Notes: a model not told the origin generated them from the sequence alone. A stretch of DNA of 64,000 bases from an uncultured Alphaproteobacteria bacterium (GCA_951812775.1 OX638326.1:3823180-3887179); one strand, 5' to 3'. Shown: positions 7,925 to 64,000, counted from the first letter of the stretch. Numbers and translations are program-made.

Positions 7925-8490
7925 ATGCGGTTTCTTGATTTCCGGGCGATTGTCGCTCTTACGATTTTTTCTTTGGTTTTGCAATTCTGCTGCCTCTTGG
8001 GGCAAGCGCTCAACGCGTTCCGGCAAAACCCGCTGAATCCAATTCTGGCACACAATCCCCCCGGGTGGGGCAGCGCATTGGCGATTGGACCTTTCAATGT
8101 CAGGCCTTATCGGCGAGCGATACGCGATGCGTCATTTTTCAACAGCTTGTGAATCAAAAAACCCGTCGTCCGGTGTTGCGAGCAACGCTGGCCTCGATCG
8201 GGGAGAAAAAGAACCTTGGACTTATCGTCCTGGCACCGCTGGGCATATTCCTCGGTTCAGGGGTTGCTGGGAAAGTTGATGAAGGTAAGCAGTTCAAATT
8301 TGTATTGCAGCGTTGTACGCAGCAGGGCTGCCAGGCCGCTATTCAGGTTTCAGACAGTCTGAAAGCGGAATTAAAGAAAGGCAAACAGTTGGTCGTTGCC
8401 TTTAAGCCCACAGCCAATGCTCAACCTGTCCAGCTAGCCGTGTCCCTGAAAGGTGTCGCTGCTGGTCTGAAGGCGCTGAAAATCAAGTGA
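7925..8490 (+). pseudogene. Invasion-associated locus B (IalB) family protein; signal peptide (frame 2) and mature domain (frame 1) separated by an apparent frameshift in a C6 homopolymer
   Basis: 7925.. encodes MRFLDFRAIVALTIFSLVLQFCCLLGQA (signal peptide). 8065..8490 (GTG start) encodes IalB-like GDWTFQCQ...KQFKFVLQRCTQQGCQAAIQ. The frames overlap at 8038-8152 around cccccc at 8057-8062. Confidence 0.55.
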
Positions 8491-8579
8491 CCGCCTGATC
8501 GGTGACCAATCACGAGTAAGGTCTCGTTTACCCTAACGTCATACCATTAGTGGCCGAATGATGTTGTTGAGGCCAGACT

Positions 8580-10517
8580 GTGCAGCCGGGACAGGTAAAC
8601 CCATTATCTTTGACTAAAGCCGCAGTGCCAGCCTGGCTGGGCGTCGCTGGCTGGCGGGAAATATTTGGCATAGATCTGCGCACACTTGCCGTTTTTCGGG
8701 TTTTGTTGGGCAGTTTCCTGATTTTGGATCTGATCCTGCGGTCTCGGGACCTAGTGGCCCATTATACGGATTTTGGAATATTCCCAAGAGCCGCCGCCAT
8801 AGATGGATTGGCGGCGGGTGCCTTTTCGTTTCACTTGATGAATGGCAGCGCAGTATTTCAGGCAGCTTTGTTTGTCCTTGCAGGTGCATTCGCTGTTTTG
8901 ATGATCGTTGGATGGCGGACGAGGCTCGCCACAGCTATGTCGTGGGTACTGCTGCTCTCCATGCAGAACCGCAACTGGGAAATTCATTCCGGTGAGGATC
9001 AACTGGTGATGGTTCTGTTGTTCTGGGCGATGTTTTTGCCGTTGGGAGCGCGTTTCTCCGTTGATGCTGCGATGGTTCTCAGGGAATCTGCTAAGTCGAA
9101 TGATTTCGTTTCCCTTGTGACGGCTGCGTTGTTGTTACAGGGCATGTCGATGTATTTCTTTAGCGCCTTGTTAAAATCCGATGCGCGATGGATTCCCGAC
9201 GGGACAGCCATCTATTTTGCTTTGCAGCTCGATTATTTTGCGACGTCACTGGCATTGTGGTTCCGGCAGTTCGAGACACTTCTTCAAGGTCTAACCTATT
9301 ACGTCTGGGCGCTAGAACTTATTGGCCCAATTCTGATTTTCTCACCAATTCTCCAACGGCCATTGCGCGCAATATTGATGACGGCGTTCATCACGATGCA
9401 TTGCGGTTTCTTTCTGTTCCTGGAAATCGGGATTTTTCCGCTCATTTCAATTATTATGAACCTGACCTTTATGCTTGGCTGGATGTGGGATTGGTTTTGC
9501 CGGAAATTACGACCCGATGCCCGCGAAGGGTTGAAAATTTGGTATGACCGGGATTGCGGGTTTTGTCTTAAAACCTGCCGCTTGTTAAAGGTTTTTCTCA
9601 TATTACCCGAGGTGCCGATCAAACCAGCGCAGTCAGATGCGCAGGCTGGTGCATTGTTGGAATCCCACAATAGCTGGGTTGTTTCCCAGGGAAATGTCGC
9701 ATTGATACGGTGGGATGCGATGCGGCATCTATTTATCTGTTCACCGATATTCTGGCCTGTTGCAAGGCTTCTCACTGTAACACCAATACGAAAAATGGGA
9801 GATCGGTTGTATCTATGGATCGCCCGGAATCGTAATACGTTAAGCAATGTGTCTGCGCGTGTTTTACCCTGGGAAAAGATTCAGTTGAGGCCACCGCTCT
9901 GGCAAAACGTATTTGTCGCAGTCTCGTTCTCACTCGTTCTGGCGCAGAATGTTTCAACGCTTCCACAATCCGGGCTTCAAATTCCGGAGCCGCTTTGGCA
10001 GGTGCGACAGTTCCTGGGGCTTTATCAAAACTGGACTATGTTTGCGCCTTATCCCGAACTGGTCAGCCCCTGGCCAGTTATGATGGGGGAGCTCAAAGAT
10101 GGTCATGTGGTGGACGTCTACAATGCGAAAACAGGAATTCCTTCTTTTGAAAAACCTGAGCTGGTTTCCGCTGTGTATAAAAACTACCGCTGGCGAAAAT
10201 ATTTATCCAATCTCGAAGATGCCAGTTATGAAAACAAGCGCAATCATATGGCGTTGAATTATGGACGATATCTTTGTCGTTTATGGAATAGCCAAGCCAT
10301 TGGACTCGACCAGCTATCAACTTTTTCGATTTTTTTAATGTCGAAAGAACGCCACTTCCCGGAAATGCCAAAGTCGTTAAAACACGGCAGATTTGGGATC
10401 ATAACTGCTTTGGATGACCAATCTCGGTTAGGCAGATTTCCGATGTTCAATGAGTCTTGTTGCCGGCAATCTGACGGTTGCCGTCGTCCCTTCCCCTTCT
10501 TTGCTCTCAAGTTTTAG
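8580..10517 (+). CDS. HTTM (vitamin K-dependent gamma-carboxylase-like) domain fused to DCC-family (DUF393) thiol-disulfide oxidoreductase domain
   Basis: 645 aa; N-terminal GIDLRTLAVFRVLLGSFLILD HTTM signature with multiple TM helices; central IWYDRDCGFCLKTCR (YDGDCxFC-like DCC motif); the last ~30 codons overlap the convergent HK gene. Confidence 0.6.
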   Translation: MQPGQVNPLSLTKAAVPAWLGVAGWREIFGIDLRTLAVFRVLLGSFLILDLILRSRDLVAHYTDFGIFPRAAAIDGLAAGAFSFHLMNGSAVFQAALFVLAGAFAVLMIVGWRTRLATAMSWVLLLSMQNRNWEIHSGEDQLVMVLLFWAMFLPLGARFSVDAAMVLRESAKSNDFVSLVTAALLLQGMSMYFFSALLKSDARWIPDGTAIYFALQLDYFATSLALWFRQFETLLQGLTYYVWALELIGPILIFSPILQRPLRAILMTAFITMHCGFFLFLEIGIFPLISIIMNLTFMLGWMWDWFCRKLRPDAREGLKIWYDRDCGFCLKTCRLLKVFLILPEVPIKPAQSDAQAGALLESHNSWVVSQGNVALIRWDAMRHLFICSPIFWPVARLLTVTPIRKMGDRLYLWIARNRNTLSNVSARVLPWEKIQLRPPLWQNVFVAVSFSLVLAQNVSTLPQSGLQIPEPLWQVRQFLGLYQNWTMFAPYPELVSPWPVMMGELKDGHVVDVYNAKTGIPSFEKPELVSAVYKNYRWRKYLSNLEDASYENKRNHMALNYGRYLCRLWNSQAIGLDQLSTFSIFLMSKERHFPEMPKSLKHGRFGIITALDDQSRLGRFPMFNESCCRQSDGCRRPFPFFALKF

Positions 10518-12688
10518 CTCGCCCTGGTGGAGTTCGGTCATTGATTTGACCAATGGCAAACCGAGGCCTGTACCTTCATAGGCCCTCTCCAATCTGGAAT
10601 CCGCCTGACCAAACGGTTGCAGGATGATATTTATCTTGTCGGCGGGTATGCCGATGCTGGTATCACTGACTGAAAAGACAAACCCGTTTGCCCCGATGCG
10701 GGCAATGAGTTTTACACTGCCACCTTCGGGCGTGAATTTAACGGCATTGGATAATAGGTTCAGGAGAACCTGTTTGATCATCCGCTCGTCTGCCATTAAC
10801 TCGGGAAGATCGTCGGGGATATCTGCAGAAAGCGTGACATTGCCCTTTTCGGCTCTTTCGGCAAGCATTTTTAGGGCAGTGGCGACAATACGGCCAAAGC
10901 CAAAGGGAGCTTCATTGGGCTCCAATTCGCCAGCCTCAATCTTCGACATATCGAGGACGTCGTTGATGATTTCAAGAAGATGGGAGCCGCTATTATAGAT
11001 GTCAGTCGAGTATTCGACATATTGAGGAGATCCCACAGGGCCAAAGGCCTCGGTTTTGATAATTTCTGAAAACCCGATAACCGCGTTTAACGGTGTCCGG
11101 AGTTCGTGACTCATATTAGCGAGAAATTCTGTTTTGGCGCGGTTTGCCGACTCCGCTGTTTTACGTGCTTGCTCCTGTACTTCTTCGGCTTTCTTCCGTT
11201 CCGTGATATCGCGAAAAGTGTAGATGAACATTTTTTTGTCGACATGTTCCGAACGTCGTTTATTTGCCTTGATAGATAGTCGAGACGTACTGATCAGCAG
11301 CTCTATAATAAGCTCTCTTCCGTCTTGGGTCGTCAGGGGGAATTCGGCCGGTCCGAACATATTGTCACTTAAGCCACCTCTTTGGTCCTCATCTCCTTCA
11401 GCTTTGTTGTATAGGGCCTCGATTTCTTTCGACCAGGGTAAATAGTTGTGAATGGGCTGATCCATGGCGTCATCTGTTGTGATGCCCAGTATCTGTCCTG
11501 CTGCCGGATTGAAGAGCTCTACTACGCCGTCTTCATTAACTGTTGCGATACCATCAAAACTGTCATCGACCATGCTATTCATCATCGCTCGACGATGCAT
11601 CGCCTCAACACGATGCTCAAAAATCGACAAGGTTTGGGCGTCGATTGATCGCCAAAGGCCAACAACATAGGAGAGACCTGTTACAAGTACCCAGGGAGCA
11701 GTATCGACAATGATCGGCCAAGCTGCCAGTACGCCCAGGGAAATCCCACCGCTTAAGAAAATGACGGACCCTGTACAGAATGCGCCGATTCGCCAAGAGG
11801 TACGATCAAGAAAAGGGCCAAGAAAAATAGCAAGGAATAAAGCGACAATCAGAACCGGCCAAGTGTCCAGTCGATGGATCATCCGGTTCTGGATAATCGT
11901 TTCAAAGGCGAGCGCTTGCAGGACTGGACCAGGAATCACTTTGTGGACGGCAACGTTTAGTGGTCACCAAGTTCCACGGCCGTGGCGCCCACAATAACTC
12001 GTTTTCCGGCTACGGTACTATTGAGAAAATTTCCCTGGATGACGTCCATATAGGACAATCTTGGAAGCGTGTCCGGTTGGATACCCAGATCAATATAAAA
12101 AGAACCATGTGGCATTTCCTTGCTCGTCGCGAGGATGCCAGCCATGCTGGTGATGTTATGGCCTTGAATGTCGTCGGCGGTGAGATAGCGCCTTACGCGG
12201 CCATCCTCCTCTACTCGGATATTAACCGTTGCAAGATGAGCATTCGCGCCGACTGTTGGTACGGGAACGGAATGAAAAACCTTTGTTTCATGACCCTTAG
12301 CGGCATGGAACTGTTTGAAGACGGGCAATAAAACGCGGCCATTAGCGCGGGTAATTGCGTCTCCCAAGGCTTTGTCATCTTCTTCATTGGAATGGGAACT
12401 AAAGTCAATATCGAGGGCAACAGACTTAGCACCGGCGGCGAGGAGGCGGTCTATAATCTGGGCGTGATAGCGCCGCGGCCACGGCCAGATGTTGAGTTCT
12501 TTCAGGCTCCTTGTGTCGATTTCGACAACAACAATTTCCTGGCTGGCTTCCCGCTTCAGGAGCTTGAAAGCGAGATCTGTGAGAGCAAAACCTAAGGACG
12601 ACAAAAACTCGCCGAGATATATTCCCGCGACGGTAAGAAACACCACCAGATGGGGCATTATTCGTCTCAGTGTATTTCGGTCTTTCAA
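10428..12688 (-). pseudogene. CHASE2-sensor / PAS / histidine kinase, split by a 1-nt frameshift between the CHASE2 and TM regions
   Basis: 11957..12688 is a CHASE2 domain (IVVVEIDTRSLKELNIWPWPR...GATAVELGDH*). 10428..11939 continues the CHASE2 C-terminus (IPGPVLQALAFETII), then three TM helices, a PAS domain, HisKA (MSHELRTPLNAV) and HATPase. The frames switch at GGTGACCACTAAACG (~11957-11966). Confidence 0.7.
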
Positions 12689-12849
12689 TGCTGCCTCGAA
12701 TGGCCAAACAGTTTTCTACAAATCCGGCCATAAAGGGTAGTTGGAACAGTTTAAAGAACCGTTCAGGGTTGTCAGAAAAGAAAACGGCCTCCTCGAAAGG
12801 AGACCGTTTCTTTGCAAAGCAATTTCAGGAGGAACTATTTGTTCCCGTT

Positions 12850-12966
12850 TCAGTTACCATTGCCATTTCCGTTACTGTTTCCATTACCGCCGCCGTTACT
12901 GTTTCCGTTGCCGCCGCCATTTCCAATACCGCTATTGTTGGCGCTGTTTCCGTTGCCATTGCCGTA
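12850..12966 (-). repeat. imperfect tandem GGN/AAY coding repeat encoding a Gly-Asn tail (YGNGNGNSANNSGIGNGGGNGNSNGGGNGNSNGNGNGN)
   Basis: visible nucleotide periodicity gttaccattgccatttccgttactgtttcc... at the 3' end of the FecR-domain gene. Confidence 0.6.
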
Positions 12967-13900
12967 GCTAGCTTGGGCAGCAACGGTTGCCGGGATGGAG
13001 AAGCTCTTCGGAACTTTGAAAGCTCTTAGTTTTTTGACGGTGTTTTTTGAAAGTTTCCGGGAATTGCCGCGCCCGGTCGCTTTAGGGGCACCTGCATCAT
13101 TGACGAGGCCGCGCGAAACTTTAGAGATATTGACCCGTTTGGCACCAACCATCTTTTTGATGACAGAGCGTGCTGCTTTGCCACGACCGCCTTGTGGGCT
13201 GTTCTGTGATTGCTTCTCCGCCGCCGGTTTAGCATTGGCGGGGTCAGCTTTAGCTTTGTCCTTGCCCTTTGCTCCTGGCGTCGATTGCTTTTTGAAGCCA
13301 ATCAGCCGCATCTGACCGCCATTCCGGTTGCTGACAGCAGCTGTCTGGCCAGGTCTCACGAGGGCAGTTTGGCCACTCAAAATAGAGCTGACCTGGACGG
13401 CACCCTCGGTAACATGCAAAGCAGCGTTGCGCTGATCAACGGAAACCGTAAAAGTCGTTCCTTTGATAACCGCCGCTAAATAGGGTGTTTTTACCGAGAA
13501 CGGTTTGTCCGGCCTGGTCGTGATTTTGAACAGGATTGATCCCATTTTTTGCGCAATACGGGTTGCCGGTTTTTTGCCCTTCGCCTTACCTGATTTTGGA
13601 ATGTTAAAATGGCTGCTTGGCGCGACATCAAGTGAGTCTCCGGGCTGGACCATAATAACACGTCCTTTTGGACCGGTTTTGACTTCCATACCGGGATGAA
13701 TAGTTTCGCCGCGCTTGAGCACATGCCATGCCTTCCCGTCGTGGCTCTTTTGTGTCCTTAATATCAGTTACCCGCCAGTCGCGTGCGTGCTCTGCTTTAG
13801 CGCTGTTCGTATTGACTAAGAGGGCGCCCATCGCCATGGCACCCCAGATCAGGTAGCCATATCTACTTGAAGTTTTGGCGGTGTTGTTCAAATTTTCCAT
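12850..13900 (-). pseudogene. FecR-domain periplasmic protein with GN-repeat C-terminal tail; signal peptide and FecR domain in different frames (apparent 1-nt frameshift)
   Basis: 13628..13900 encodes signal peptide MENLNNTAKTSSRYGYLIWGAMAMGALLVNTNSAKA. 12850..13722 (GTG start) encodes the FecR domain (KRGETIHPGMEVKTGPKGRVIMVQPGDSLDV...TTFTV). The frames meet at ACACAAAAG (~13748-13756). Confidence 0.6.
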
Positions 13901-14249
13901 TTTTCTGCCCTCCCGGGGCTGGTTGATTAAAAATTGCTACAAAACTGCGATTAACATTGCGGCGATTTTTACCTTTCAAATCTTACGAAAATTTAAAAAG
14001 ATAAATTAAATCAATAACTTAGTAAAATTTTAGAAAAATTTGAGATAATTCTTTGTTAACCTTTTCGTTAATATTATGGTTAACATTCGATGCTGGGTTG
14101 GCTCGGATAACTGTGGGAAGGCGTTAGTTGTCCTGGCTTAAGCACCTGGTTTAGCAGAAGAATTTCGGCGCTTTTTTCCCATGGTCTTCTGAGGTCATGG
14201 TTAATCGACTGTCGTCGGGTATAGGAAACACCAGCAAATTGTTGCGTAA
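13901..14249. promoter_or_regulatory. AT-rich divergent intergenic region between the FecR/CHASE2-HK operon (-) and the TpsB gene (+); repeated TTAACATT / GTTAAC motifs
   Basis: 350 bp with GC far below the window average; TTAACATT at 13951-13958 and 14080-14087, GTTAAC at 14055-14060. Confidence 0.35.
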
Positions 14250-15953
14250 ATGAATCAGTCGACCGGGTCTCAATGGGGCCATAAAAAAAATAAATTATTT
14301 TTTATTGGTGCATTCGTTTGCATAACGTTTTTACTTGGATTTTCGTTTGCGCAGTCTTCTGGCGGGGCCAACGACGCCGGAAAGATTCAGGAACGGCTTG
14401 AACGGCCGGCCGAGAAACTAAGCGAAATCGATTCTATTGCTGCTCCGAAAACAGAGAAAACCGAAACCAGGAAGGAATCCGAGAAATTTCGTCTGATAGG
14501 GGCACAGCTGGTTGGAAACAGCGTTTTTACCTTGGCGCAGCTCGCACCGATTTATGAACCTTACCTCAATCGGGAAATCTCGATTGCCGAGGTCGACAAG
14601 ATCGTAAAGGCGATCACCGAAAAATATCACAAAGATGGATATTTCCTGACGCGCGTCTATGCGCCGCCGCAGGCAGCCGAGTTTGGCATTCTGGAACTCC
14701 GCGTGGTGGAAGGGTTCGTGGAACGCGTTGAATTCAAGGGCGATAAGCCGGGAAGATCGAGCTTGTTCAAGGGTTGGGCGGCTAATATTCAGGCAGAGAA
14801 ACCTCTTAAGCTTGGCACCCTTGAACGAAACCTGCTCCTTATGGCTGATATCCTAGGGATCGGCGTAACCCCGAGCGTCAAATAGATTGACCTGGAAAGA
14901 GGAGCGTATCGTCTTGAAATCGCCGTGACTCACCAGAAAGTGGGCGGTTTCGTGAATTTCGACAATCGTGGTACGACGGCTGTTGGACCTTTACAGGTCT
15001 ATGCAGGTGTAAACCTAAATTCCATTATTGGCCTTCTTGAACGAACCAGGCTGGCTGTCTTCACAATTCCCCAGACACCTGAAGAACTTCGCTACGTAGA
15101 GTTTCAACAGGACCATATTTTGAATGGTGCCGGGACTCAGGCATCGATTTTTGCGTCGCGCAGTATTGTGGATTTGGGAGATGAAGCGCTTTTTACCAAA
15201 GAGAACAGCCACGGAACGCGAATTTCACTGGAAGTCTCTCACCCTCTCATCAGGAGTAGGGATCTCAATCTTTTTGCTTCAATCAAGCTGGATGCCTTCG
15301 AATCCGACAAGAGTGGAGATAATGGCACGTTTGATGACAAGCTCCGGATCTTAAGGCTGAAGTCGCGGTTCAATTCGTCAGATGGTTGGGGCGGTACGAA
15401 CTGGTTGTCAGGTCAGTATAGTCAGGGTTTCGACATATTTGGCGCCTCCGACGAAGAATCCGGATTTGTTTCGAATACCAACGGACGTGCTGACTTTTTG
15501 AAAGTCAGAGCAGATTTTACACGGGTGCAGAAAATCGTTGAACATCTCGATCTGCAATTGTCGAGTGCGGGACAATGGTCACCCCATACATTGTTGTCAT
15601 CAGAAGAATTTACGGTCGGTGGACAGAACTTCGGCCGGGCATTCGATCCGTCAGAAATTAGCGGTAACCTCGGTGTTTCGGGATCTGCTGAACTACAATT
15701 CAACTTACCTGCCGATCTGAAGCCTGTCTTGGATTCGGTGCAGCTTTACGGATTTTATGATGCCGGTGCGGTTTGGGGCGTGGGATATACACGCGCATCG
15801 GTAGTCTCTGCCGGTGGTGGAGTAGGGTTGTCATTACCGTACAATTTTCGGGCGCAGTTTGAGGCTGCGATGCCCCTTACCCGGCAAAGCGATAGTGGTG
15901 AAGCGGAACGCAAGGACCCCCGCCTGTATTTCAGCATAAGCAGTCAGTTCTAA
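14250..15953 (+). pseudogene. TpsB-type (ShlB/FhaC/HecB family) outer-membrane transporter with POTRA domain, interrupted by an in-frame TAG
   Basis: 14250..14885 encodes signal peptide + POTRA (LELRVVEGFVERVEFKGD...LERNLLLMADILGIG). An in-frame TAG sits at 14883-14885. 14925..15953 in the same frame encodes the beta-barrel (GGFVNFDNRGT...RLYFSISSQF, C-terminal aromatic residue). Confidence 0.7.
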
Positions 15954-16074
15954 CGCGGATATTGTTCTCACTGTGGATAACTTCATCCCATCAACGTTTT
16001 ATTTACGATAATTTTTCACCGGAATTTTAGGCCTTTGGTCCACCATTTTGGCAACAAGATTGGCGGAGTAGATC

Positions 16075-16554
16075 ATGAAATTTCTGTCCGGTTTTATTAC
16101 TTTTTGTGCATTGCTCGCTTTTGCACCTGCTGGTGCCATGGCGGCGGAAGAAACTGAAGAACAGCTAAAAGCGCGGAAAAAGGCTGAAGCCGAAGCCAAT
16201 AGTGTCCACGCGCTCTCGGTTTTCAGCTATGTGAATCCGGTTCGAGGCCGCGTTCATACGCGACGGCGCCCGGTTCTCATTACCCTGAATGTCAAAGGAA
16301 TGGACGCGCTCAGCCACTTTTGTCAGCAAAAGCCATTGATTGGCGAGGCCGTCCTAAAAATTATCGGTTGGGGGCCTGCCCCCGATTTGTCCAACAAGAA
16401 GGTACTGGAAATTAAGCGGCAATCGTTACATCAGGAATTTTCTGAGGTTTTGTCGGCGGATTCCTTGAAGAATGTCTCACTGAAATTAGGAAAAACAGTC
16501 GCGGAATTTGGCAAGCAGCTGCAGGGAACATCCAACGCCTGTGGTGGCAAGTAG
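16075..16554 (+). CDS. hypothetical secreted protein (signal peptide; weak FliL-like character)
   Basis: 159 aa; N-terminal MKFLSGFITFCALLAFAPAGAMA signal peptide; no confident family assignment. Confidence 0.4.
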   Translation: MKFLSGFITFCALLAFAPAGAMAAEETEEQLKARKKAEAEANSVHALSVFSYVNPVRGRVHTRRRPVLITLNVKGMDALSHFCQQKPLIGEAVLKIIGWGPAPDLSNKKVLEIKRQSLHQEFSEVLSADSLKNVSLKLGKTVAEFGKQLQGTSNACGGK

Positions 16555-16562: not shown

Positions 16563-17967
16563 CTAAAGCCTGATGACGGCCATCTTGTCCTGGGTCAGGT
16601 CGTGCATGGTGTGACCGATTCCGCCGGTGCCATAGCCTGACTGTCGCCGTCCTGCAAACGGCATCCAGTCGACTCGAAAAGCTGTGTGATCATTTATCAT
16701 GACAGCCGTTGCATCCAGAGACCGTATCAGTTTGGTGGCGGTGTCGAGTCGTTGCGTAAATCCAGCTGCCTGAAAAGCAAAGGGTAGGGCGTTGGCACGA
16801 TCAATCGCTTCCTCAATAGTCTCATAGCTATAGACTGCGAGTACGGGGCCAAAAATTTCAGCAGTTGAAAGACGTGTGTCGCTACAAGGGTTCAAAATTA
16901 CTGTAGGTGCAAAGGCAGTTTCACCCAATTTTTCGCTACCACACAGAACATCTCCACCGCTTTCCATGGCCTCAGATACCCATTCAGCCACGCGCGACAC
17001 TTCGCCCGGGCGAATGAGGGGGCCAACCTCGACCTTCTCCTCAATTGCATTTCCCACGACGAGCTTGCTCGCCTGTTCGGCGATAAGTCCGGCGATATCA
17101 TGCGCCATCGATGCTGGTGCAAAGACGCGCTGAACCGATACGCAAACCTGTCCAGCGTGGTAAAATCCACCTTTGACCAAAAGGGGCAGCATTGCGTCGA
17201 TATCTGCGCTTTCATCGATAATAACCGGCGCGGCACCGCCATGTTCTAATGCCGCCCTGGTGCCCGGTGCGAGTTTTGATCGCAGCATCCAGCCAACGCG
17301 GGCTGATCCGATAAAACTGAAAAATGCTACACGCGGGTCTGTAATAAGACGTTCTGCCGTAGGAATGTCACAGGGAAAATACTGGCACCATTCTTCGGGG
17401 AGTCCGGCCTCATATAAGATGTTTACAAAGCTTTGCGCCGAAAGCGGTGTGTCATCTGCCGGTTTGATAATGACGGGGCAGCCCGTGGCGATAGCGGGTG
17501 CTACCTGATGGATAATCAGATTTAGTGGGTGATTGAATGCGGAAACCGCGACAACCGGCCCAATCGGTTCCTTGCTGGTAAAGGCCATTCGGCCGGCGCC
17601 GGCGGCGGTGAGATCCATTGGAATTTCGTGTGCCAGTGAGATGACTTAATTCCTTGGCAGCGAGTTCGACACCATCGATCGCACGGTCGACTTCGATCCG
17701 GGCATCAATGAGCGGCTTGCCCCCTTCATTGGCAATTTGAAAAGCAAGCTCGTCAAAACGCTCACGCATGAGGGCGCTGGCTTTGTGCAAAACAGAAATC
17801 CGCTGATGGGCGGGAAGCCAGCTATCGCGATCACGATGTAATCGATCAGCGGCGGTGAGCCACTTATCGGCTTCTTCCCATGTGCCTAAAGAGACTTCAC
17901 CGATGGTCTCGAGAGAGAACGGATTGCAAACAGACAGGATGGCATATTCCTTGGCTTTCGCACGCAC
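16563..17967 (-). pseudogene. aldehyde dehydrogenase (NAD(P)+) family, split by a 1-nt frameshift
   Basis: 17452..17967 encodes the ALDH N-terminus (IANEGGKPLIDARIEVDRAIDGVELAAKELSHLTG). 16563..17618 encodes the rest (HEIPMDLTAAGAGRMAFTSKEPIGPVVAVSAFNHP...catalytic Cys region GQVCVS). The frames switch at ACTGGCACACGAAATT (~17625-17640). Confidence 0.7.
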
Positions 17968-18044: not shown

Positions 18045-19598
18045 TTAATCCTCGAAGCCGTACTCTTTCCAGCGGGCGTTGACCTTATCCATGTCTTCCT
18101 TATGCGGGATGACCATGGCGGGGTAACGATCGCCGTTATATTGCTCTTCCGGTTCGAAATCGAGGTTAACGGTCGCATCGATGAGGACCCGGCACCATTT
18201 GCCAGTGCCAAAGAGCATCGGATCCCGGTCTTTGAGGCGCGTCGATGGATCCAGCAATGACCCCCATGAACCTGGGAAAAAGACGATGTCATCTTCGGCT
18301 GCATTGACGCGATAGGCAAAGGCCCAATCCACCGCCGCATAATCGTGAATGTCGATGTCCTGATCGACTACCCAGATATGTTTGTATCGAAGATGCGATG
18401 CGTTTGAGCCCCAGATTGCGGCGGCTGCCTGTTTTGCCTGACCCCGATAGGTCTGGTTCAGCTGGATGAACAGCGTCGTACCGTTATTGGCAGGGGCGCA
18501 ATGGACGTCCGTCACACCTGGAACACCGGCACGTTCCAGAACATTCCAGGCCACACCAGCTCGCTGTACCGAACTCATAATGCTGTTCTCATTCAACATT
18601 GACGGTAGGGTGCCCTCGAGCGTGCCCCGGAAAATAGGCTGGTCGCGATGGGTAATAGCAGTGACTTTGGTGACATGCTTTGGTCCCTGATCGCCACCGA
18701 AATAACCGGTATATTCGCCAAACGGGCCCTCCATCTCGAACGTTGCCGGATCAGGATCAATAAATCCTTCAACCACCAATTCAGCGCTGGCTGGTACCAT
18801 GATGTCACTGGTCTCGCATTTGACGAGTTCAACTGGCTTGCCACGGATGGCGCCCATCACGTCATATTCTGAAACACCGGTTGGCACAGGGGCAGAAGCA
18901 CAATACGGCATGCAGGGTTCCCAACCATAGACGTGAGCAACCGGCATTTTCATGCCGCGGTCAGCCCATTTCTGGAAGTGAACACCCCAGTTCTGCGCGC
19001 GCCATAGGAGGACCGGCAGAGTGTCTTTTTGACCCAACATTCCCCGATAGATACCCAGGTTATGAACACCAGTGTCGGGGTCCATCGTAATCGTTGCCTG
19101 GAAGGTGTTGATGTAGCGGCCGCCATCTTCGCGATGCCATTTTGGAATTGGAAAATCGTACAGGTTAATATCGTCGCCTGTGACGATGTTTTCCTTTACC
19201 GGCCCGTTATCTACTTCAACCGGTGCAACTCGTTGGCTCAGATAGTAGCGCGTGGCCTGCACCATATCGGTAACAGATGCATCTTTTGGCAGGCCCAGCG
19301 TCATTGCGATGCGCGAGAAGTTCGACATACCGCCAGTAAATAGCTGACTGCAGCGCGCGTCATCGCCGTTATAACCGCCGATATTCTTGAACAGCAGGGC
19401 AGGGCCGTTGCCTGTACCAAACGCCTTGCGGGCGACGGTTCCCAGTTCGCAATCCCAATCGACCTCAGCGTTGATTTCCTGCAATTCGCCTTCGGCGCGC
19501 AGTGCTTCGATCCATTCCCGAAGATCGCCATATGCTTTGGGTTGCAGTCTGTTCGAGACACCGCCAAAGGCGTCAATATCATTGTCTGTTCCGGCCAT
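18045..19598 (-). CDS. UbiD-family (prFMN-dependent) decarboxylase, VdcC/BsdC-like paralog 1
   Basis: 517 aa; ALLFKNIGGY, GIYRGM, SEYDVMGAIRGKPVELVKCET, EGPFGEYTGYFGG, VVDQDIDIHD motifs align with phenolic-acid decarboxylase C subunits; distinct from the canonical ubiD at 40566..42065. Confidence 0.75.
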   Translation of the reverse strand: MAGTDNDIDAFGGVSNRLQPKAYGDLREWIEALRAEGELQEINAEVDWDCELGTVARKAFGTGNGPALLFKNIGGYNGDDARCSQLFTGGMSNFSRIAMTLGLPKDASVTDMVQATRYYLSQRVAPVEVDNGPVKENIVTGDDINLYDFPIPKWHREDGGRYINTFQATITMDPDTGVHNLGIYRGMLGQKDTLPVLLWRAQNWGVHFQKWADRGMKMPVAHVYGWEPCMPYCASAPVPTGVSEYDVMGAIRGKPVELVKCETSDIMVPASAELVVEGFIDPDPATFEMEGPFGEYTGYFGGDQGPKHVTKVTAITHRDQPIFRGTLEGTLPSMLNENSIMSSVQRAGVAWNVLERAGVPGVTDVHCAPANNGTTLFIQLNQTYRGQAKQAAAAIWGSNASHLRYKHIWVVDQDIDIHDYAAVDWAFAYRVNAAEDDIVFFPGSWGSLLDPSTRLKDRDPMLFGTGKWCRVLIDATVNLDFEPEEQYNGDRYPAMVIPHKEDMDKVNARWKEYGFED

Positions 19599-19852: not shown

Positions 19853-20779
19853 GTGGTTGATCTCCGTAGTTTTGATTTCAATCTTGTTCGGGTGCTGGTC
19901 ATGCTCGAGGAAGAAAGAAGTGTAACCAGCGCGGCAACACGTCTCGGCATAACACAGCCTGCGGTAAGTGCAGCTTTGGCCCGTATGCGCGAAGCATTTG
20001 ATGATCCATTATTCATAAGAACCCAACGGGGCATGACGCCCTCTATCCGGGGTGCAGAGTTGGCGCGCGCGGCAAAGTTGGTTTTGCATGATTTTGAAGA
20101 GCTGTTTGCGACTAAGTCCTTTGATCCGGCAACGGCAGAGGCAAGCCTGACTGTCGGCGCCAACGATTACGGCCAATTCTCTATCGTGGCCCCCTTGCTG
20201 AAGACTATTCGGAACTCAGCCCCTGGCATCAGAATTAATGTACGGCCTTTGGAAGATGATATTTGCGGGCAGCTCGAACGCCAGGAGATAGATGTCGCCA
20301 TTACGTTGCTGTCGAAATCGCCCCAGAACGCCATCGCGACCCGTCTCTTCAGTGAAGATTTTGTCGGAGCCGTTGATAAGGCAAATAATTCTGTTGGCTC
20401 TAGAGTCTCTCTGGATGAGTTCTGTGGGTTTGAGCATGTGCGTGTTTCAGTTGCTAACACGCGGCTCACGGATCCTGTGGATGAGGAGCTCAAGATCAAA
20501 GGTCGTCGTCGCGATATTGTTTTGACGATACCGAACTTTTTTATGATCCCCAGCCTGCTTCGCGGATCCGATCTTTTTAGTGTCGTTCCGCTAAGACTCA
20601 CGCGGTACTTTGATTGGACATTGAAGCCCGTCGCACTGCCGCTTCACCTTCCGGGTTTTACGATGAACCTTATTTGGCACCAGCGAACGGTAGACTCGCC
20701 ACGTCACGTATGGCTGCGAGAACAGCTACAATCTATTTCGCGCTCAATTGAAAAGGGCGCGGCGGATAAAAACCGCTAA
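19853..20779 (+). CDS. LysR-family transcriptional regulator
   Basis: 308 aa; N-terminal wHTH LVRVLVMLEEERSVTSAATRLGITQPAVSAALARMRE; divergent from one UbiD-like gene and followed by a second. Confidence 0.85.
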   Translation: MVDLRSFDFNLVRVLVMLEEERSVTSAATRLGITQPAVSAALARMREAFDDPLFIRTQRGMTPSIRGAELARAAKLVLHDFEELFATKSFDPATAEASLTVGANDYGQFSIVAPLLKTIRNSAPGIRINVRPLEDDICGQLERQEIDVAITLLSKSPQNAIATRLFSEDFVGAVDKANNSVGSRVSLDEFCGFEHVRVSVANTRLTDPVDEELKIKGRRRDIVLTIPNFFMIPSLLRGSDLFSVVPLRLTRYFDWTLKPVALPLHLPGFTMNLIWHQRTVDSPRHVWLREQLQSISRSIEKGAADKNR

Positions 20780-20789: not shown

Positions 20790-22340
20790 TCAAACCGGTT
20801 TAAGCGGATCGCCCCATTTATCCATGCCAAGCTGGGCCCAGCGATTACGGATGTTTTCTGCATCCGCTTCGTCCGGGTGGATTGTCGGCGGATACCGTCG
20901 ACCATCCTCACCAGGTTCGTAATCCAAATTGATGGTGCAGTCGAACAAGACACGGTGCCATTTCCCGGTGCCAAACAAATGGACATTGGAATCACGTGTT
21001 CTGACGCTGGGATCCAGTCCGGCGCCCCAATTCTCCGGATAAACGACGAGATCACCTTCTCCGGCGTTAAAACGCCACGCCATTGCCCAATCGATAGCAT
21101 CGTAATCATGCACATCAATGTCTTCATCGACGACAGTGACATGTTTGTATCGAACATGGGATGCGGAATTACCCCATAACGCGGCAGCAACCTGTTTCGC
21201 CTGTCCGCGATAGGTCTGCTTGATTGAAACAACTGTATTCACACAGGCCTGGATGGGCATGCCAAAGACGTCCTGAACACCTGGGACGCCCGCGGACTCA
21301 AGGGCATTCCAGGCGGTAGCGGATCGTTGGATCGAACTCATAATCGGGTTTTCGCCATAACTACCTGGAATGGCTCCTTCGACACAACCGCGGAAGATCG
21401 GTTTATCGCGATGGGTAATACAGGTGATCTGGGCGACATGTTTCGGGGAATGGTCGGGCGCGTAATAGCCGGTAAACTCGGCATAAGGACCCTCGGGTTC
21501 AAAGGTTGAGGGGTCGGTCGAAATCCACCCTTCAATGACGATTTCTGCATCAGCCGGAACCTGCAGCGGAACAGTTTCGCAATCGACAAGGTCGACGGGC
21601 TTACCGCGGATCGAACCCATAATGTCATATTCGGAAACTGACCGCGGTATCGGAGCACCACCGGTAAAGCCCATCGAAGGTTCCCAGCCGATAACAAAGG
21701 CAACCGGCATTTTGTCGCCGCGTTCCATGTGCTTGGCATAATGCGTGCCCCAACCCTGTGCCCGCCATAAAAGAACACCAAGCCGGTCCTTATCGAGAAC
21801 CATCCCGCGATAGATACCGATATTGTGGACATCTGTATCCGGGTCTTTGGTTACACAGCCAGCATAAGTCAGGGCGTAGCGGCCACCGTCGCCACGATTC
21901 CATTTTGGAACCGGGAATTTCAGCAGATCGATATCGTCTCCCTTAAGAATGTTCTCTTTTACAGCGCCAGTTTTGACGGTGTTGGGAGTGACCTGATTGT
22001 TAAAAATGGTTCGGCAAACCTGGACCAGGTCCTTCACAGGCGTATCGCGTGGTATACCGAACATCATTGCTAGACGTGAATAACTGCCCTGGCCTCCGGT
22101 GAAGACCTGAGAGGAAACGGCGTTGGGTCCGTTATAATCTGTGATGTTGTTGAACAGAAAGGCGGGGCCGTGGCCGGTCCCCTGTCCCATACGGATAATG
22201 TTGCCCAATTCGACGTCCCAGTTCACTTCCGCGTCGATTTCAGCGAGTTCCCCTTCTTTGCGCAGGGCGTCAATCCAACCCCGGAGGTCGCCATAGGCGA
22301 TGGGGGTGCGTTCTACGCTGGGTTCTTCTTGCTCAGTCAT
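20790..22340 (-). CDS. UbiD-family decarboxylase, VdcC/BsdC-like paralog 2
   Basis: 516 aa; same motif set as paralog 1 (AFLFNNITDYNG, GIYRGM, SEYDIMGSIRGKPVDLVDCET, EGPYAEFTGYY). Confidence 0.75.
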   Translation of the reverse strand: MTEQEEPSVERTPIAYGDLRGWIDALRKEGELAEIDAEVNWDVELGNIIRMGQGTGHGPAFLFNNITDYNGPNAVSSQVFTGGQGSYSRLAMMFGIPRDTPVKDLVQVCRTIFNNQVTPNTVKTGAVKENILKGDDIDLLKFPVPKWNRGDGGRYALTYAGCVTKDPDTDVHNIGIYRGMVLDKDRLGVLLWRAQGWGTHYAKHMERGDKMPVAFVIGWEPSMGFTGGAPIPRSVSEYDIMGSIRGKPVDLVDCETVPLQVPADAEIVIEGWISTDPSTFEPEGPYAEFTGYYAPDHSPKHVAQITCITHRDKPIFRGCVEGAIPGSYGENPIMSSIQRSATAWNALESAGVPGVQDVFGMPIQACVNTVVSIKQTYRGQAKQVAAALWGNSASHVRYKHVTVVDEDIDVHDYDAIDWAMAWRFNAGEGDLVVYPENWGAGLDPSVRTRDSNVHLFGTGKWHRVLFDCTINLDYEPGEDGRRYPPTIHPDEADAENIRNRWAQLGMDKWGDPLKPV

Positions 22341-33446: not shown

Positions 33447-33447
33447 G

Positions 33448-48021: not shown

Positions 48022-48147
48022 GCAATTGACTTGGGGCCGCGTATTTTACGCGCAGATACAGCGGCTGTTGCAGCACTCTCATGCTGGCAGTCCGTGTTGG
48101 GCGATTGGGCCGGTGAGAAAGCGTAGAGCGGTTGAGTAGGATCTAGC

Positions 48148-51864: not shown

Positions 51865-53506
51865 ATGGGTTTAATTCATTCACGGACTTTCCTCCGGGAA
51901 CGTCACGAAATCGTTGACCGCTTGAGCAAATGGCAGGTGCTGGTCAATCTCGTCGCTAAAACTTTTGGCGGTTCGGCATCTTTGGTTTGCCAGATAACAG
52001 AATCGGGTATTCGTCCGGTCGTCTCTAGCGATCAGGAAAGCAACCCGTTTCCTATCGGGGCAACTTTTCCATTTGAAGCCCACACCTTCTGCAAAGAGGT
52101 AATTGTTAAGCAGGAGCCGGTTTACGTTCCAAATGCGCCCGAATATCCCTATTGGGAAGAAAGCCCTGTTTGGACTGAACATGGCTTCCGGACGTACTAT
52201 GGGGTGCCACTTTTTTGGCCGGATGGCCAGGCCTTCGGAACCATTTGTGTCATGGATCTTGTTTCGACGGAGTACGAAGAACCGTTTATCCACTGGCTCA
52301 CCTGTTTTCGGGATTTGGTTGAAGCAGACCTTATATCGGCGGCACAATTTTATATCGGCGGCACAATTTTTGAACAAATCAGAATTTCTCGCTGGCGTCA
52401 GTCATGAGCTGAGAACACCAATGAACGGCATTGTTGGGATGGCAGAGTCCCTGTTGCGTTCGACATTGTCTGACAATCAAAAACTTGAAGTCGAAACGAT
52501 AAAAGACTGCGCGGAAACATTGGTGTCATTACTCGATGACATTTCAGATATTTCCAAAATTGAAGCCGGCCATCTTGAAATCGATATTCAGAGCTTTAGC
52601 CTCAATGAGATGATAGCTCATACCGAGCGCCTTTGGCGGACGCATGCGGATGCGAAAGGGCTGGCACTAACGGTCGATATTGCACTGGATATCCCTACTG
52701 TTCTGGAAGGCGATGTTAATCGAATAAAGCAGGTTTTATTCAATTTACTCTCCAATGCGATAAAATATACCGACCATGGATCGGTGACGGTGAAAGCTCT
52801 GTCCAAAGGTCTAAAAGAGGGTTCACATATCGTCCGGTTTGAGGTGCAGGATACCGGCATTGGACTCGATTGTGATGATCAGGAGGTCCTTTTTCAGCGA
52901 TTTATTCAACCTAACCCGTCAATCGGTGAGGCTGAGGGTGGCGCAGGTCTTGGTATTGCGATCAGTCGAAATCTCGTCGAGATGATGGGCGGCGAGATAG
53001 GGGTCGATAGCGAGGTTGATACGGGGTCGACCTTTTATTTTGAGTTGCCGTTTGGTGTGCCTGGCGAGGCCGACAAAGCGCCAGCTACATCTAAGGCAAA
53101 AGAAGAGCCTGAAACTGCTACCGACGTTTCCGTATTGATCGTAGAAGATAACCGCGTAAATCAACGCGTTCTTGAGGTATATCTTGCACCGTTTGATTTT
53201 GATGCGACGATTGCCGTCAATGGTGCTGAAGCAGTTGCTGCCATTCAAGATGAACAGTTCGATGTTATTTTTATGGATATCCAGATGCCGGTCATGGATG
53301 GGATTCATGCAACCCGAAAGATTCGTGAAGTAGGTGGTTGGTGCGCAAGCGTTCCCATCGTTGCTGTTACGGCGAACGCAACGGCTGGTGATCGGGAACG
53401 CTACCTCGAAGCTGGCATGGATGATTACATTCCCAAACCGGTAGATCGAAGCGCCTTGTTTGAGGTTCTCAGAAAGTACAAACTGGCTTCAAAAATCGTT
53501 GACTGA
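51865..53506 (+). pseudogene. GAF-domain hybrid sensor histidine kinase/response regulator, interrupted by a 19-bp tandem duplication
   Basis: 51865..52407 encodes the GAF domain. 52103..53506 encodes HisKA (VSHELRTPMNGI), HATPase and a C-terminal REC (VLIVEDN...MDIQMP). The reading frames differ by +1 exactly at the duplication. Confidence 0.7.
52332..52369 (+). repeat. perfect 19-bp direct tandem duplication (tatatcggcggcacaattt x2) inside the hybrid kinase gene
   Basis: read directly: 52332-52350 is identical to 52351-52369; removing one copy restores ...EADLISAAQFLNKSEFLAGVSHELRTP in one frame. Confidence 0.85.
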
Positions 53507-60832: not shown

Positions 60833-61544
60833 GCCAGCGACTGAGATGCCTCAAAAGCGAACCGGCAAGGGACTTGCAGTTCTTGCTCTTGGCACCTTTT
60901 GCGTTCTGATCACACTCGGTACCTGGCAGCTTCAACGGCTCGCCTGGAAAGAAGGGTTGATCGCTGAACGACAGGCAAAGCTCGCAATGGCACCGATTCA
61001 GGTGTCGAACCCTCTTGATGTCAAACCGGCACCATTCCGGCGTGTCGTGCTGGAAGGCCGCTTTCTGCATGATAAGGAAATATTTGTAGGGCCGCGCTCC
61101 TTTCGCGGGCGTCCCGGCTGGCATGTTGTTACACCGCTGCAATATAGATCGGGCGCAATCGTGTTGGTTGATCGCGGTTGGGTCCCGCAATCCCGACAGG
61201 ATGTTGCAAAACGGCAATCTGCTCAGAAGACAGGATTCGTCTCTGTCGTCGGTATTGCAGGGTGGCCGCGCAAGCTAGGGTGCTTTGAGCATCAGAACGA
61301 CCCTGGAAAGAACCAATGGTTTCGGGTGGCTCCTGACGCGATGGCGGCGAAGCTGAAATTAGAACAAGTTGCTGCTTTTTGGGTAATCGCAGATGCCACC
61401 CCCAATGCTGGTGGGTTTCCGATTGGCGGTGGCGGAATCAGAATGCCTGCGAACAATCACCTGCAATATGTCCTTACCTGGTATGGCATGGCCTTGGGAC
61501 TACTCGTGCTATCCATCGTCTACTGGCGGCAGAGGCGCCAATAG
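60822..61544 (+). CDS. SURF1-family cytochrome oxidase assembly protein
   Basis: 240 aa; N- and C-terminal TM helices; SURF1 family in the cox cluster. Confidence 0.75.
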   Translation: MTNEPATEMPQKRTGKGLAVLALGTFCVLITLGTWQLQRLAWKEGLIAERQAKLAMAPIQVSNPLDVKPAPFRRVVLEGRFLHDKEIFVGPRSFRGRPGWHVVTPLQYRSGAIVLVDRGWVPQSRQDVAKRQSAQKTGFVSVVGIAGWPRKLGCFEHQNDPGKNQWFRVAPDAMAAKLKLEQVAAFWVIADATPNAGGFPIGGGGIRMPANNHLQYVLTWYGMALGLLVLSIVYWRQRRQ

Positions 61545-62457
61545 TGCCCGGCGCGGCATTCTGGAAGCAGTCTTCGGTCCGAGGGGCACTTTGGATGTGT
61601 GCCGCATCTGTCATGATAGGGATTTCCGCTGCTTGCATCCGCGAGCTTTCCGGGACCTACAATACCTTTCAGCTGGTGTTTTTTCGCAGTGCCGTTGGCT
61701 TGCTGTTGCTCGTGCCATGGATGTTTCGGACGGCGAGGTTGGGCGTTTTATCGACGCAACGTCTGCCGCTATATCTGGTGAGAACGGTGCTTAGCTATCC
61801 GGGATGGTTTGTGTGTTCTATGGCCTGGCGAATATGCCAATTGGCGAGGTTTACGCCCTGTTATTCCTGGTGCCCATCATTACCATTGTGTTGGCGGTTC
61901 TTCTGCTCAAAGAAAGAGCGGGCGCCGAAGCCTGGATTGCTTGTGGTATCGCCTTTATCGGAGCGCTGGTCATTCTGCGACCCGGCATTATCGCTCTTAC
62001 ATTGGCGGCGGCGGTGGTGCTGGTAACTGCCGTGGCCTATTCCGCCGTTAATATCTGTATAAAATCCCTATCCAAAACCGATACACCTGCGCAGATTACA
62101 TTCTACGGACAGTTGCTCGCCTTACCGTTGGCGCTGGGTCCCGCGCTTTTCGTCTGGGTTACCCCTGAATGGTCAGATGTTCCCTTGATCTTTGCCCTTG
62201 GCGCCCTACAGCTGTTGGCGGGGCTGTGTCACGCCTATTCGGTACGTGCGGCAGATGCGCGAGTCGTGCAGCCGTTCAATTTCGTCCGTTTGCCCGCAAG
62301 TGTTTTGATCGCATTCGTTTTGTTTTCTGAGCTGCCATCGCCCTGGACCTGGCTCGGGGCGGGGATGATCTTTGCCAGATCGTACTATGTGCTTTACCGC
62401 GAGGCCGCAAATAAAGAGGCGGCTAGCGACGCAGAAGAAACTCCCTGCCAAGCTTGA
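61544..62457 (+). pseudogene. EamA-family (DMT) transporter, apparent frameshift in a TG repeat between the two EamA halves
   Basis: 61544..~61815 (frame 2) encodes the first EamA domain; 61804..62457 (frame 1) encodes the second; junction at tggtttgtgtgttctatgg. Confidence 0.55.
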
Positions 62458-63604
62458 CGCGGGCGGTGCCGTCATACTCGATTATATCGGCAGTCGCGTA
62501 GGTCTCACTCCAGGTTGTCGGGAGATAACTGCCGGTGCCGATGACATCGACCGGCGCCTGTGCTTCGGCGAACAGATGGCATTTGGCCGGACCAAATCCG
62601 CTGGACGCGACAATCTTCGCTTTCTCAAAGCCTTCCTTGTCGAGGACCTCACGCATCCGCCAGATCGCTGCGGCAGAAACACCGGCACCAACGAGATAGG
62701 CGAGCTGCGCTTCTGAACGATAGCCGCGGACAACGTCTGGCACGTGGCGTTCCAGAACGGCATAGGAAGCAGCCGGGTCGAGCCCTTCAATGTATCGGCT
62801 GCCAGGTGTGTCGAGTCGGAACGACATTTGTCCCTGTTCAACGAGCTCGGGAAATTTTCTGCAGACCGCGAGCGTATCGGTCACCTCCTGGCCAAAATAA
62901 TCAACCAGCACTGTCATCGGCATATCAGGGAACGCGTCGCGGAACATTTCCGCGGCCCGCAAAGTACTACCTGCATACCCAATAAAAGCATGCGGCATGG
63001 TGCCTTTGCCGTCTTCTTCGCCGAAGTAATGCGCCGTGGCGTCGGTTGCATTGCCAACAAAGCCGATAGCGCCAACCTTTTTACGCGCTTTCGCAGAACC
63101 GACGGATGCCGCATAGGCCATCATTTCCGCCATGCTGGTGCCGGCGCAATGGCGGGCATCCATTGCCATAAAGGCAACTTTGGGCAGATCGGCACACATT
63201 GAATAGGCATTGTAAGCTGCGACACAGGCCGGTCCCAGTTTTTGCAGAAGTAAAGTCTCAAGATCAACAAGCTGCGAAAACGCGCCCGTGACATAGGCGA
63301 TAGGTTCGCCAGCACCGACCCATTTACCTTCCTTGTATTTTAGATCAATTTCAAAACGCGTGTTGCGTTCATCGGCAACTGCCTGAAGCCAGTCGAGCGC
63401 CAGTCGGGGGGCAGAAACAACGGGTCGCCTCATAAACAGGGCGTACGTGACCTGGGCATCGCCAAATTTGGCGACGGCTTCCTTGGTTCGCGAGAAATAC
63501 TTATCGGTCCAACTATCAATTTCCGGCTGACCGGTCGGCCAGCTGGCTTCGCCACTTTCTTTTGACGTGGTGGGTTTTCCCTTTGGGCTTACAGTGGCGG
63601 CCAT
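62423..63604 (-). CDS. nicotinate phosphoribosyltransferase-family protein
   Basis: 393 aa; type II phosphoribosyltransferase fold. Confidence 0.55.
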   Translation of the reverse strand: MAATVSPKGKPTTSKESGEASWPTGQPEIDSWTDKYFSRTKEAVAKFGDAQVTYALFMRRPVVSAPRLALDWLQAVADERNTRFEIDLKYKEGKWVGAGEPIAYVTGAFSQLVDLETLLLQKLGPACVAAYNAYSMCADLPKVAFMAMDARHCAGTSMAEMMAYAASVGSAKARKKVGAIGFVGNATDATAHYFGEEDGKGTMPHAFIGYAGSTLRAAEMFRDAFPDMPMTVLVDYFGQEVTDTLAVCRKFPELVEQGQMSFRLDTPGSRYIEGLDPAASYAVLERHVPDVVRGYRSEAQLAYLVGAGVSAAAIWRMREVLDKEGFEKAKIVASSGFGPAKCHLFAEAQAPVDVIGTGSYLPTTWSETYATADIIEYDGTARVKLGREFLLRR

Positions 63605-63720
63605 GATATTGCTCGTGTGCGCTTGGCGAGTAATCTATCGTATTCAAGCACATAATGGTCCCGAAGCGGTAGTGCCATTGTGCAATGATGTATTTGTTGA
63701 ACGAACGATATTGAAGGTCG

Positions 63721-64000
63721 AATGACTCCTTATAAAGAGCTTGAAGCCCGTTTTCGGCGCATTGGCGCGCTTGAGGAAGCAGAAGGTATTCTGCACTGGG
63801 ATATGTCGGTGATCATGCCCAAGGGTGGCGCGGAATCGCGTGCCGAACAGTTGGCGGCAATGAAACTCACCATTCACGGTATGCTGACGGATGCCGCCTT
63901 GGCAGATCTGCTGAATGCAGCCGAGGAAACGCCTATTGATGATCCTTGGCAGGCCGCTAATTTAAAGGAAATGCGGCGTCGTTGGCGGCATGCAAATGCT
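63721..64000 (+). CDS. M32 carboxypeptidase (Taq-like), 5' fragment running off the window
   Basis: MTPYKELEARFRRIGALEEAEGILHWDMSVIMPKGGAESRAEQLAAMKLTIHG matches the M32 N-terminus; no stop before position 64000. Confidence 0.5.

Follow-up and report, generated by a model that had tools for sequence, protein, structure and literature searches.

Are the broken genes of a bacterial locus being lost by the organism that carries them, or do they only appear broken in its sequence? The question is raised by a stretch of 64,000 nucleotides (nt) from the genome of an uncultured Alphaproteobacteria bacterium (GCA_951812775.1, OX638326.1:3823180-3887179), analysed at its full length and hereafter called the window. 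An initial annotation had reported seven disrupted genes here, and all seven are borne out in the deposited sequence by Pfam domains split between reading frames and by frame views. Two more, encoding a DCC1-like membrane protein and the rRNA methyltransferase RsmE, bring the total to 9 of 57 genes and about 11 lesions (Table 1). We lean towards regarding these lesions as genuine, recent loss-of-function mutations, i.e., decay under relaxed selection centred on an accessory block of four genes, a reading that we hold to be moderately probable. The core of the signal would then be the decay of an optional envelope-signalling block and two flanking genes.

Nine disrupted genes and their lesions

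Disruptions were called from Pfam domains split between frames, from frame views, and from alignment to the proteins or nucleotide sequences of syntenic relatives. The nearest genomes are uncultured "Alphaproteobacteria bacterium" metagenome-assembled genomes and ocean metagenome contigs, with TldD proteins 83-96% identical to that of the window and syntenic DNA at about 77-80% nucleotide identity. Relatives L006-L008 cover 43.6-64 kilobases (kb) of the window, and relatives L016-L018, which do not have the four-gene block, cover 2.6-27 kb; L013 was the source of an intact block copy for alignments. A 97-kb JGI contig (3300072015), compared by gene table alone, has the gene order of the window with all genes of the affected run intact, namely IalB (187 amino acids, aa), the DCC1-like protein (612), the CHASE2 kinase (751), FecR (372), TpsB (562), an unknown protein (159) and aldehyde dehydrogenase (458). 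Between 27 and 43.6 kb of the window, gene integrity was judged from Pfam coverage and open reading frame continuity alone.

Table 1. Position, strand and state of the genes discussed, in window coordinates
Gene	Coordinates	Strand	Lesion or feature	Basis
IalB-family periplasmic protein, frameshifted	7925..8490	+	net 1-nt loss, TTC(T)TG, at about 7988 (7985-7990), signal-peptide region	Pfam, frame view, alignment
DCC1-like (thiol-disulfide oxidoreductase domain) polytopic membrane protein	8580..10417	+	1-nt loss within T7 run 10330-10336	tblastn, nucleotide alignment
CHASE2-PAS-HisKA-HATPase sensor histidine kinase	10428..12688	-	one 1-nt loss, CAAC to CAC, at about 11960, within CHASE2 domain	Pfam, orthologue mapping
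FecR-domain secreted protein, Gly/Asn-rich tail	12835..13900	-	net -5 nt, 13745-13756, at ACACAAAAG; TGA 12850-12852	frame view, Pfam FecR, L013 374-aa orthologue
TpsB/ShlB-type outer-membrane transporter (POTRA_2 and ShlB barrel)	14250..15953	+	GAG to TAG, 14883-14885	Pfam, frame view, alignments
159-aa gene without family match	16075..16554	+	intact	
Aldehyde dehydrogenase	16563..17967	-	+1 nt at about 17628 in GGCACACG (GGCACA-C-GAAATT); possible start-codon loss, orthologue ATG = ATC at 17938-17940	Pfam, L016 458-aa orthologue, start-codon alignment
UbiD-family decarboxylase paralogue	18045..19598			
LysR-family regulator	19853..20779	+	within 19599-20789	
UbiD-family decarboxylase paralogue	20790..22340			
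UbiD-family decarboxylase paralogue	40566..42065	-		
CMD/AhpD-like gene	45239..46342	+	not a lesion; in-frame TGA 45974-45976	
RsmE (16S rRNA m3U1498 methyltransferase)	47377..48123	+	in-frame TAG 48019-48021; ACG in relatives	Pfam, frame view, relatives, 4j3c
GAF-HisKA-HATPase-REC hybrid histidine kinase	51865..53506	+	exact 19-base-pair (bp) tandem duplication, TTATATCGGCGGCACAATT twice, 52331-52368	Pfam, sequence, relatives, tblastn split
EamA/DMT-family transporter	61544..62457	+	1-nt loss after 61798 (TATAC to TATC)	Pfam, relatives' 304/287-aa proteins, nucleotide alignment

The lesions comprise six 1-nt or small insertions and deletions (indels), three stop-creating substitutions, one exact 19-bp duplication and one possible start-codon loss. 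Each lesion is a single small event, and each disrupted gene, including all seven reported initially, has a full-length intact orthologue in syntenic relatives. The fragments of the broken genes are called as proteins in the public genome record, a single 4,149,033-bp contig at NCBI and ENA, identical to those of the window, as is the TldD protein, and the lesions are therefore part of the deposited genome. A search of the Logan assemblies for these fragments found none that carries them.

In five genes (those for the CHASE2 kinase, aldehyde dehydrogenase, the GAF kinase, the EamA transporter and TpsB) the lesion splits the encoded domains. For the CHASE2 kinase, Pfam places CHASE2 (2-202 of 257) in one frame and PAS, HisKA and HATPase in another, and the 751-aa orthologue of L013 maps as residues 2-241 and 242-751 in two frames that join at the lesion. 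Likewise, the Aldedh domain of the aldehyde dehydrogenase is matched over 9-128 and 115-459 in two frames, with the L016 orthologue split at residues 104/105; the sole start upstream of its altered start codon is an in-frame GTG at 17967. The GAF kinase has GAF in one frame and HisKA-HATPase-REC in another. Its relatives are without exactly 19 nt at the duplication, and removal of one copy restores ...ISAAQFLNKSEFLAGVSHELRTPMNGI and gives a corrected translation with no internal stop. The Pfam match of EamA is split into 2-72 and 76-134 across frames, the relatives' proteins map to two frames, and the relatives read AGCTATACTGG where the window has AGCTAT-CCGG. The stop in TpsB falls between POTRA_2 and the ShlB barrel, which share a frame, and all three close orthologues have GAG (Glu) at that position.

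The lesions of IalB and FecR sever a signal peptide from its domain: the start codon with its ribosome-binding site and the signal peptide belong to one frame, the domain to another. IalB starts at ATG 7925 with an AAGGA ribosome-binding site and keeps its frame for some 21 codons; what remains of the signal peptide, like the entire domain, continues in the -1 frame, where Pfam IalB is matched over 1-131 of 131 (frame 7939-8490). Intact orthologues of 187 aa, 80% identical, were aligned to fix the site of the loss. The FecR frameshift falls after the signal peptide and ahead of the domain. The second FecR lesion, a TGA five codons ahead of the natural TAG at 12835-12837, is a weaker case, as only 5 residues are removed.

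The two additional genes differ in how much is lost. The shift in the DCC1-like gene occurs 28 codons ahead of a conserved stop (10415-10417), so that the open frame extends to 10517, into the convergent kinase gene. By tblastn, residues 1-585 of the 612-aa L013 orthologue match frame +3 and residues 582-612 match frame +2; the last 28 codons, in that other frame, are 61% identical to the orthologue and terminate at the conserved stop. As the shift alters the last 28 residues alone, this is a weaker pseudogene case. In RsmE the premature stop removes the last 34 residues, including an invariant C-terminal LGPRILRADTAA stretch and the conserved motif LGPRILRADTAAVAA. The Pfam match stops at 139 of 165, the relatives align across the TAG, and the read-through product aligns full-length with the solved RsmE structure 4j3c, with X opposite Thr.

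Alignment agreed with the sites initially given for FecR, the TpsB TAG, the CACACG of aldehyde dehydrogenase and the 19-bp duplication, and moved two others. The IalB lesion had been placed in a C6 tract (8056-8061); the downstream frame agrees with the orthologues from around residue 22 onwards, a point well ahead of C6. The EamA lesion had been placed at TGTGTG, about 12 nt downstream of the true site found by nucleotide alignment. Two further candidates were rejected. A suspected degraded gene in the 768-nt gap at 49515-50283 was dismissed, the relatives having there an EF-hand protein gene and a DUF3126 gene that are both intact in the window. Reassignment of TAG, or pyrrolysine, at the two in-frame TAGs was dismissed as well, TAG terminating other window genes and the relatives having sense codons at both positions.

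The four-gene envelope-signalling block

Four of the six broken genes between 7.9 and 18 kb, those for the DCC1-like protein, the CHASE2 kinase, FecR and TpsB, form a block that is a functional, variably present accessory unit, repeatedly lost by the clade. It is intact at the window-equivalent site in the JGI relative and intact in a different genomic context in L013, and the kinase/FecR/TpsB trio recurs in the distant L019 in another context, with TpsB 53% identical. The closest syntenic relative is without the block, with precise boundaries, IalB abutting a 160-aa gene, and L009-L012 keep a 349-aa TpsB stump alone at the L013-type site. Its absence from the former and its reduction to a stump in the latter show that the clade can dispense with the block.

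The block is a presence/absence polymorphism, corresponding to 8491-16074 in the window, 5890-6016 in L016, 4220-11632 in L013 and 8655-10102 in L009. The 126-nt spacer between IalB and the 160-aa gene in L016 matches the window sequence directly upstream of 16075, and the stump of L009-L012 is the C-terminal part of TpsB. The 159-aa gene is the only intact gene within the broken run and is among the least conserved in the window, at 65% identity to its relative vs 82-98% for its neighbours. A scan of genome contigs that used the kinase as query turned up distant relatives alone, none syntenic (at most 52% identical), and a scan of metagenome contigs with the TpsB alignment returned a single irrelevant match at 24% identity.

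A FecR-domain protein and a CHASE2-PAS kinase are a known operon pairing, described as "BiofilmReg" in Burkholderia and as a FecR-protein/kinase pair in P. aeruginosa PAO1 (PMC5192318). The window resembles these systems in that its FecR-domain secreted protein gene adjoins the CHASE2-PAS-HisKA-HATPase kinase gene. In contrast to them, the block has no adjacent response regulator (REC), LysM domain or DUF4136 gene, in the window or in its relatives, and the pair travels with a divergent TpsB-type transporter and a DCC1-like protein, which are absent from the description in PMC5192318. A further difference is that all four block genes are mutated in the window genome.

With its POTRA_2 domain and ShlB barrel in a protein of 543-567 aa, TpsB likewise resembles the transporters of two-partner secretion (TpsB/FhaC/ShlB). 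However, no TpsA passenger with a TPS domain is adjacent in the window, L013, the JGI contigs or L019; a beta-helix passenger was seen only beside a 32%-identical TpsB homologue, and TpsB here has the CHASE2 kinase and the FecR-domain protein as its conserved partners. The latter may be its cargo. The end of the FecR-domain protein (12838-12960, minus strand) is a long low-complexity Gly/Asn tail (GNGNGN...), of unequal length in the window and L013; if the protein is indeed TpsB cargo, the tail may be relevant. The TpsB orthologue of JGI 3300072015 (P0126), otherwise intact, has a last stretch of about 40 residues that is wholly divergent, as if frameshifted, which could reflect either metagenome assembly error or independent damage of the TpsB gene.

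How such a block might come apart can be sketched. Once one component fails, or its signal becomes irrelevant, the other components would be freed from purifying selection, and each freed component would then gain a lesion of its own, a "domino" decay. The mutations would have arisen independently, as small indels, as nonsense substitutions and, in one case, as a 19-bp duplication by strand slippage, and would have been tolerated as the genes are dispensable in the lineage; RsmE, the GAF hybrid kinase and EamA would be scattered single hits in individually non-essential genes. More tentatively, and with less than even confidence, the lineage may have been caught at the start of a burst of gene inactivation, its envelope-sensing module being dismantled gene by gene via point lesions and not by deletion. 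Should this hold, the block would be a time-resolved example of domino decay and its four parts would be functionally tied.

Weighing decay against its alternatives

The evidence for recent decay comes from where the lesions fall and of what kind they are. Of the seven genes that follow one another from 7.9 to 18 kb, six are broken (permutation p=6e-4), compared with 3 of 50 genes elsewhere. Lesions also track constraint: 8 of the 20 genes less than 90% identical to their relative are hit, vs 1 of 20 at 90% or more (p=0.01), and highly conserved neighbours are untouched, including DctPQM (93-96% identity), UbiD (94-98%) and the cox genes (92-98%). We infer that the clustering is due to relaxed selection, not to local hypermutation. 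Accelerated evolution of the broken genes was not seen for the two proteins compared with outgroups, TpsB (55-57% identity for the window vs 54-58% for intact orthologues) and IalB (49-62% vs 49-63%). As neither is further from the outgroups than intact orthologues are, the decay is young and has hardly progressed past the inactivating hits themselves; at the same time, absence of excess divergence fits very recent mutation and sequence error alike. G-to-T changes could account for two of the three stop-creating substitutions (GAG to TAG at 14883 and GGR to TGA at 12852), which hints at an oxidative-damage-type mutation spectrum, the sample being too small for more.

The initial annotation had argued for decay from gene class, and this argument proved weak. 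Its list of intact housekeeping genes was sound: cox, msbA, lpxK, waaA, purD, xseA, ubiA/D, gshA, tldD and pmbA are all intact by full-length Pfam coverage and by alignment where relatives exist. Its claim that only accessory genes are affected does not survive the TAG in the conserved RsmE. With RsmE counted, 8 of 35 accessory vs 1 of 22 core genes are disrupted (Fisher p=0.065), a bias that is not statistically robust, and the core genes amount to about 22.6 kb where about 45 kb of housekeeping sequence had been assumed. An argument that housekeeping genes are spared requires proper denominators. Relaxed selection on sensory and surface functions, which that bias had been taken to suggest, is nonetheless supported for the main cluster, with the block conserved as a unit and dispensable in the clade.

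Several points weigh against decay. With the four-gene block counted as one unit, neither the clustering (p=0.11) nor the class bias (p=0.21) is significant. Two of the indels lie in or near T6/T7 runs. All 11 sites are known from the deposited consensus alone, and one lesion per gene without excess divergence would also be expected from consensus errors. No near-identical strain was found for within-species polarisation, the best non-self TldD match being 96% identical, and hallmarks of genome decay such as insertion sequence (IS) elements are absent from the window.

Some of these points lend themselves to the alternative that the genes are intact in the organism and the lesions are sequencing or assembly errors, with a poorer consensus, through low coverage or strain heterogeneity, over the accessory island. 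Most of the lesions are indels of 1 nt; a T7 run contains one of them, and another follows a T6 run at a distance of about 20 nt. The deposited record is a single long contig, as is typical of long-read assemblies. Clustering over a variably present island would suit a locally poor consensus. However, homopolymers are for the most part read correctly: the window has 13 runs of at least 7, only one of which coincides with a lesion while the other 12 are in frame, and nearly all of its 50 runs of at least 6 are in frame too, the only one besides T7 near a lesion being the T6 at 7965-7970 upstream of the IalB site. Of the six indels, four fall outside any homopolymer. By general codon arithmetic a random substitution yields a stop codon in just a few percent of cases; were the three stop-creating substitutions errors, dozens of further substitution errors should accompany them, and indels should be far more numerous than observed. 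Consensus errors do not usually take the form of an exact 19-bp tandem duplication, the avoidance of highly constrained genes would not be expected of errors, and the main target, the block, is independently shown to be dispensable. The mixed lesion types, together with the long homopolymers left in frame, favour real decay over assembly error; systematic error at low-complexity sites, which the initial annotation had kept as an option, is thus disfavoured, and we consider consensus error in general rather unlikely. That the lesions are biological is nevertheless itself drawn from a consensus sequence, and is put forward as probable on that footing.

Another alternative is that the genes are not lost at all, their disruption being regulated or reversible through phase variation, programmed frameshifting or stop read-through, so that they are still expressed. 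Short repeats do occur at or near some sites, i.e., T7 in the DCC1-like gene, ACACAAAA in FecR and CACACG in aldehyde dehydrogenase, and one in-frame stop of the window, the TGA of a CMD gene treated below, does read as a recoding site. In contrast, each of the nine genes has orthologues with one uninterrupted frame and no such tract, so that neither the shift nor the repeat is conserved. The tracts are short, at most 7 (the longest at a lesion being T7), TAG is an ordinary terminator in the window, for instance at the ends of RsmE and CMD, and neither a 19-bp duplication nor nonsense codons are reversible switches. The earlier description of the lesions as sitting at short repeats fits about three sites, most lying outside repeats, and the repeat-mediated variation offered with it is not supported, given this distribution and T6/T7 runs that the relatives do not conserve. 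Regulated disruption is very improbable.

A third possibility extends recent decay from the block to the whole genome, taking the window as a representative sample, with about 16% of genes disrupted, of early reductive evolution under niche restriction or in a small population. Free-living bacteria usually have a few percent of their genes disrupted, and 9 of 57 is far above this. The young lesions fall in genes for sensing, envelope and transport functions and in one non-essential rRNA-modification gene, which speaks for this possibility. Against it, the case rests on one 64-kb window, six of the nine hits are in a single 10-kb block, no IS elements and no large deletions relative to the relatives are present in the window beyond the variable block itself, and the guanine-cytosine (GC) content stays at 0.47-0.55 along the whole window with no drift towards AT. 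We regard genome-wide reduction as doubtful.

Recent decay centred on the block remains the reading that we prefer, and as a phenomenon it is ordinary: these are young pseudogenes in weakly constrained genes, and no new mechanism is involved. Young pseudogenes of lineages under relaxed selection, described in recently niche-restricted bacteria as single frameshift or nonsense lesions in genes for sensing, surface and transport functions, are similar in having one or two small lesions per gene, intact orthologues, no excess divergence and an enrichment in weakly constrained genes; they differ in that the present sample is 64 kb with most hits in one 10-kb block, and in that the window has neither IS expansion nor compositional drift. 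Provided that the lesions are real, this is a natural experiment that ties the four block genes together as one dispensable unit, conserved, lost and mutated together, and it offers a lead on an uncharacterised envelope-signalling module; the genome would also stand out for an unusually heavy burden of young pseudogenes. If they are errors, the record needs correcting, and its automated annotation would under-call at least 9 proteins in 64 kb.

A conserved in-frame TGA and the UbiD region

The CMD case is a reminder that an in-frame stop is not always damage. The TGA of this CMD/AhpD-like gene stands in the context AINQCAY-TGA-TTSH, forming a C-A-Y-U motif. L006 and L007 have the identical TGA, and the surrounding 80 nt or so show just 2 differences from the relatives, overall identity being about 77%. 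With Cys in place of the stop, the Pfam CMD match scores 34 bits instead of 18, and the cut-off is passed only with read-through. Gene callers split the gene into open reading frames of 245 and 97 aa, here and in the relatives. Beginning 5 nt after the UGA is a stem-loop, a candidate bacterial SECIS hairpin, CACCAG...CUGCUC-CGUGC-GAGCAG...CUGGUG, whose sequence is about 97% conserved; its folding energy is not better than that of shuffled sequences (z=-0.69), and it has no Rfam match.

AhpD-like selenoprotein families with a CxxU motif have been described (PMC2398784). The likeness to them lies in the conserved in-frame UGA at the second redox position of C-A-Y-U and perhaps in the downstream hairpin; the difference is that selenocysteine machinery is not visible in the window, where no selA, selB, selC or selD and no tRNA gene was found, Rfam and tRNA scans of the window giving no matches. 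Judging from the conserved sequence context, the TGA probably encodes selenocysteine, and the gene would be a selenoprotein gene rather than a damaged one.

The window as a whole is of a marine alphaproteobacterial chromosome type, with a GC content of about 0.52. Its gene content includes TRAP transporters, three UbiD paralogues, purD, xseA, pmbA, tldD and gshA, a lipid A/3-deoxy-D-manno-octulosonic acid cluster (lpxL-like, lpxK, waaA and msbA) and a cox operon with ctaB, cox11 and SURF1.

The three UbiD-family decarboxylase paralogues lie within 24 kb of one another. Because two of them adjoin PhyH, hydrolase and TRAP-TAXI transporter genes, their surroundings suggest an aromatic-acid catabolic island, not ubiquinone synthesis. 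The LysR-family regulator of the window stands between two adjacent UbiD paralogues, and those two genes adjoin directly, about 85 nt apart, in each of the syntenic relatives (L016, L017 and the JGI contigs). The regulator was either inserted in the window lineage or lost in the others.

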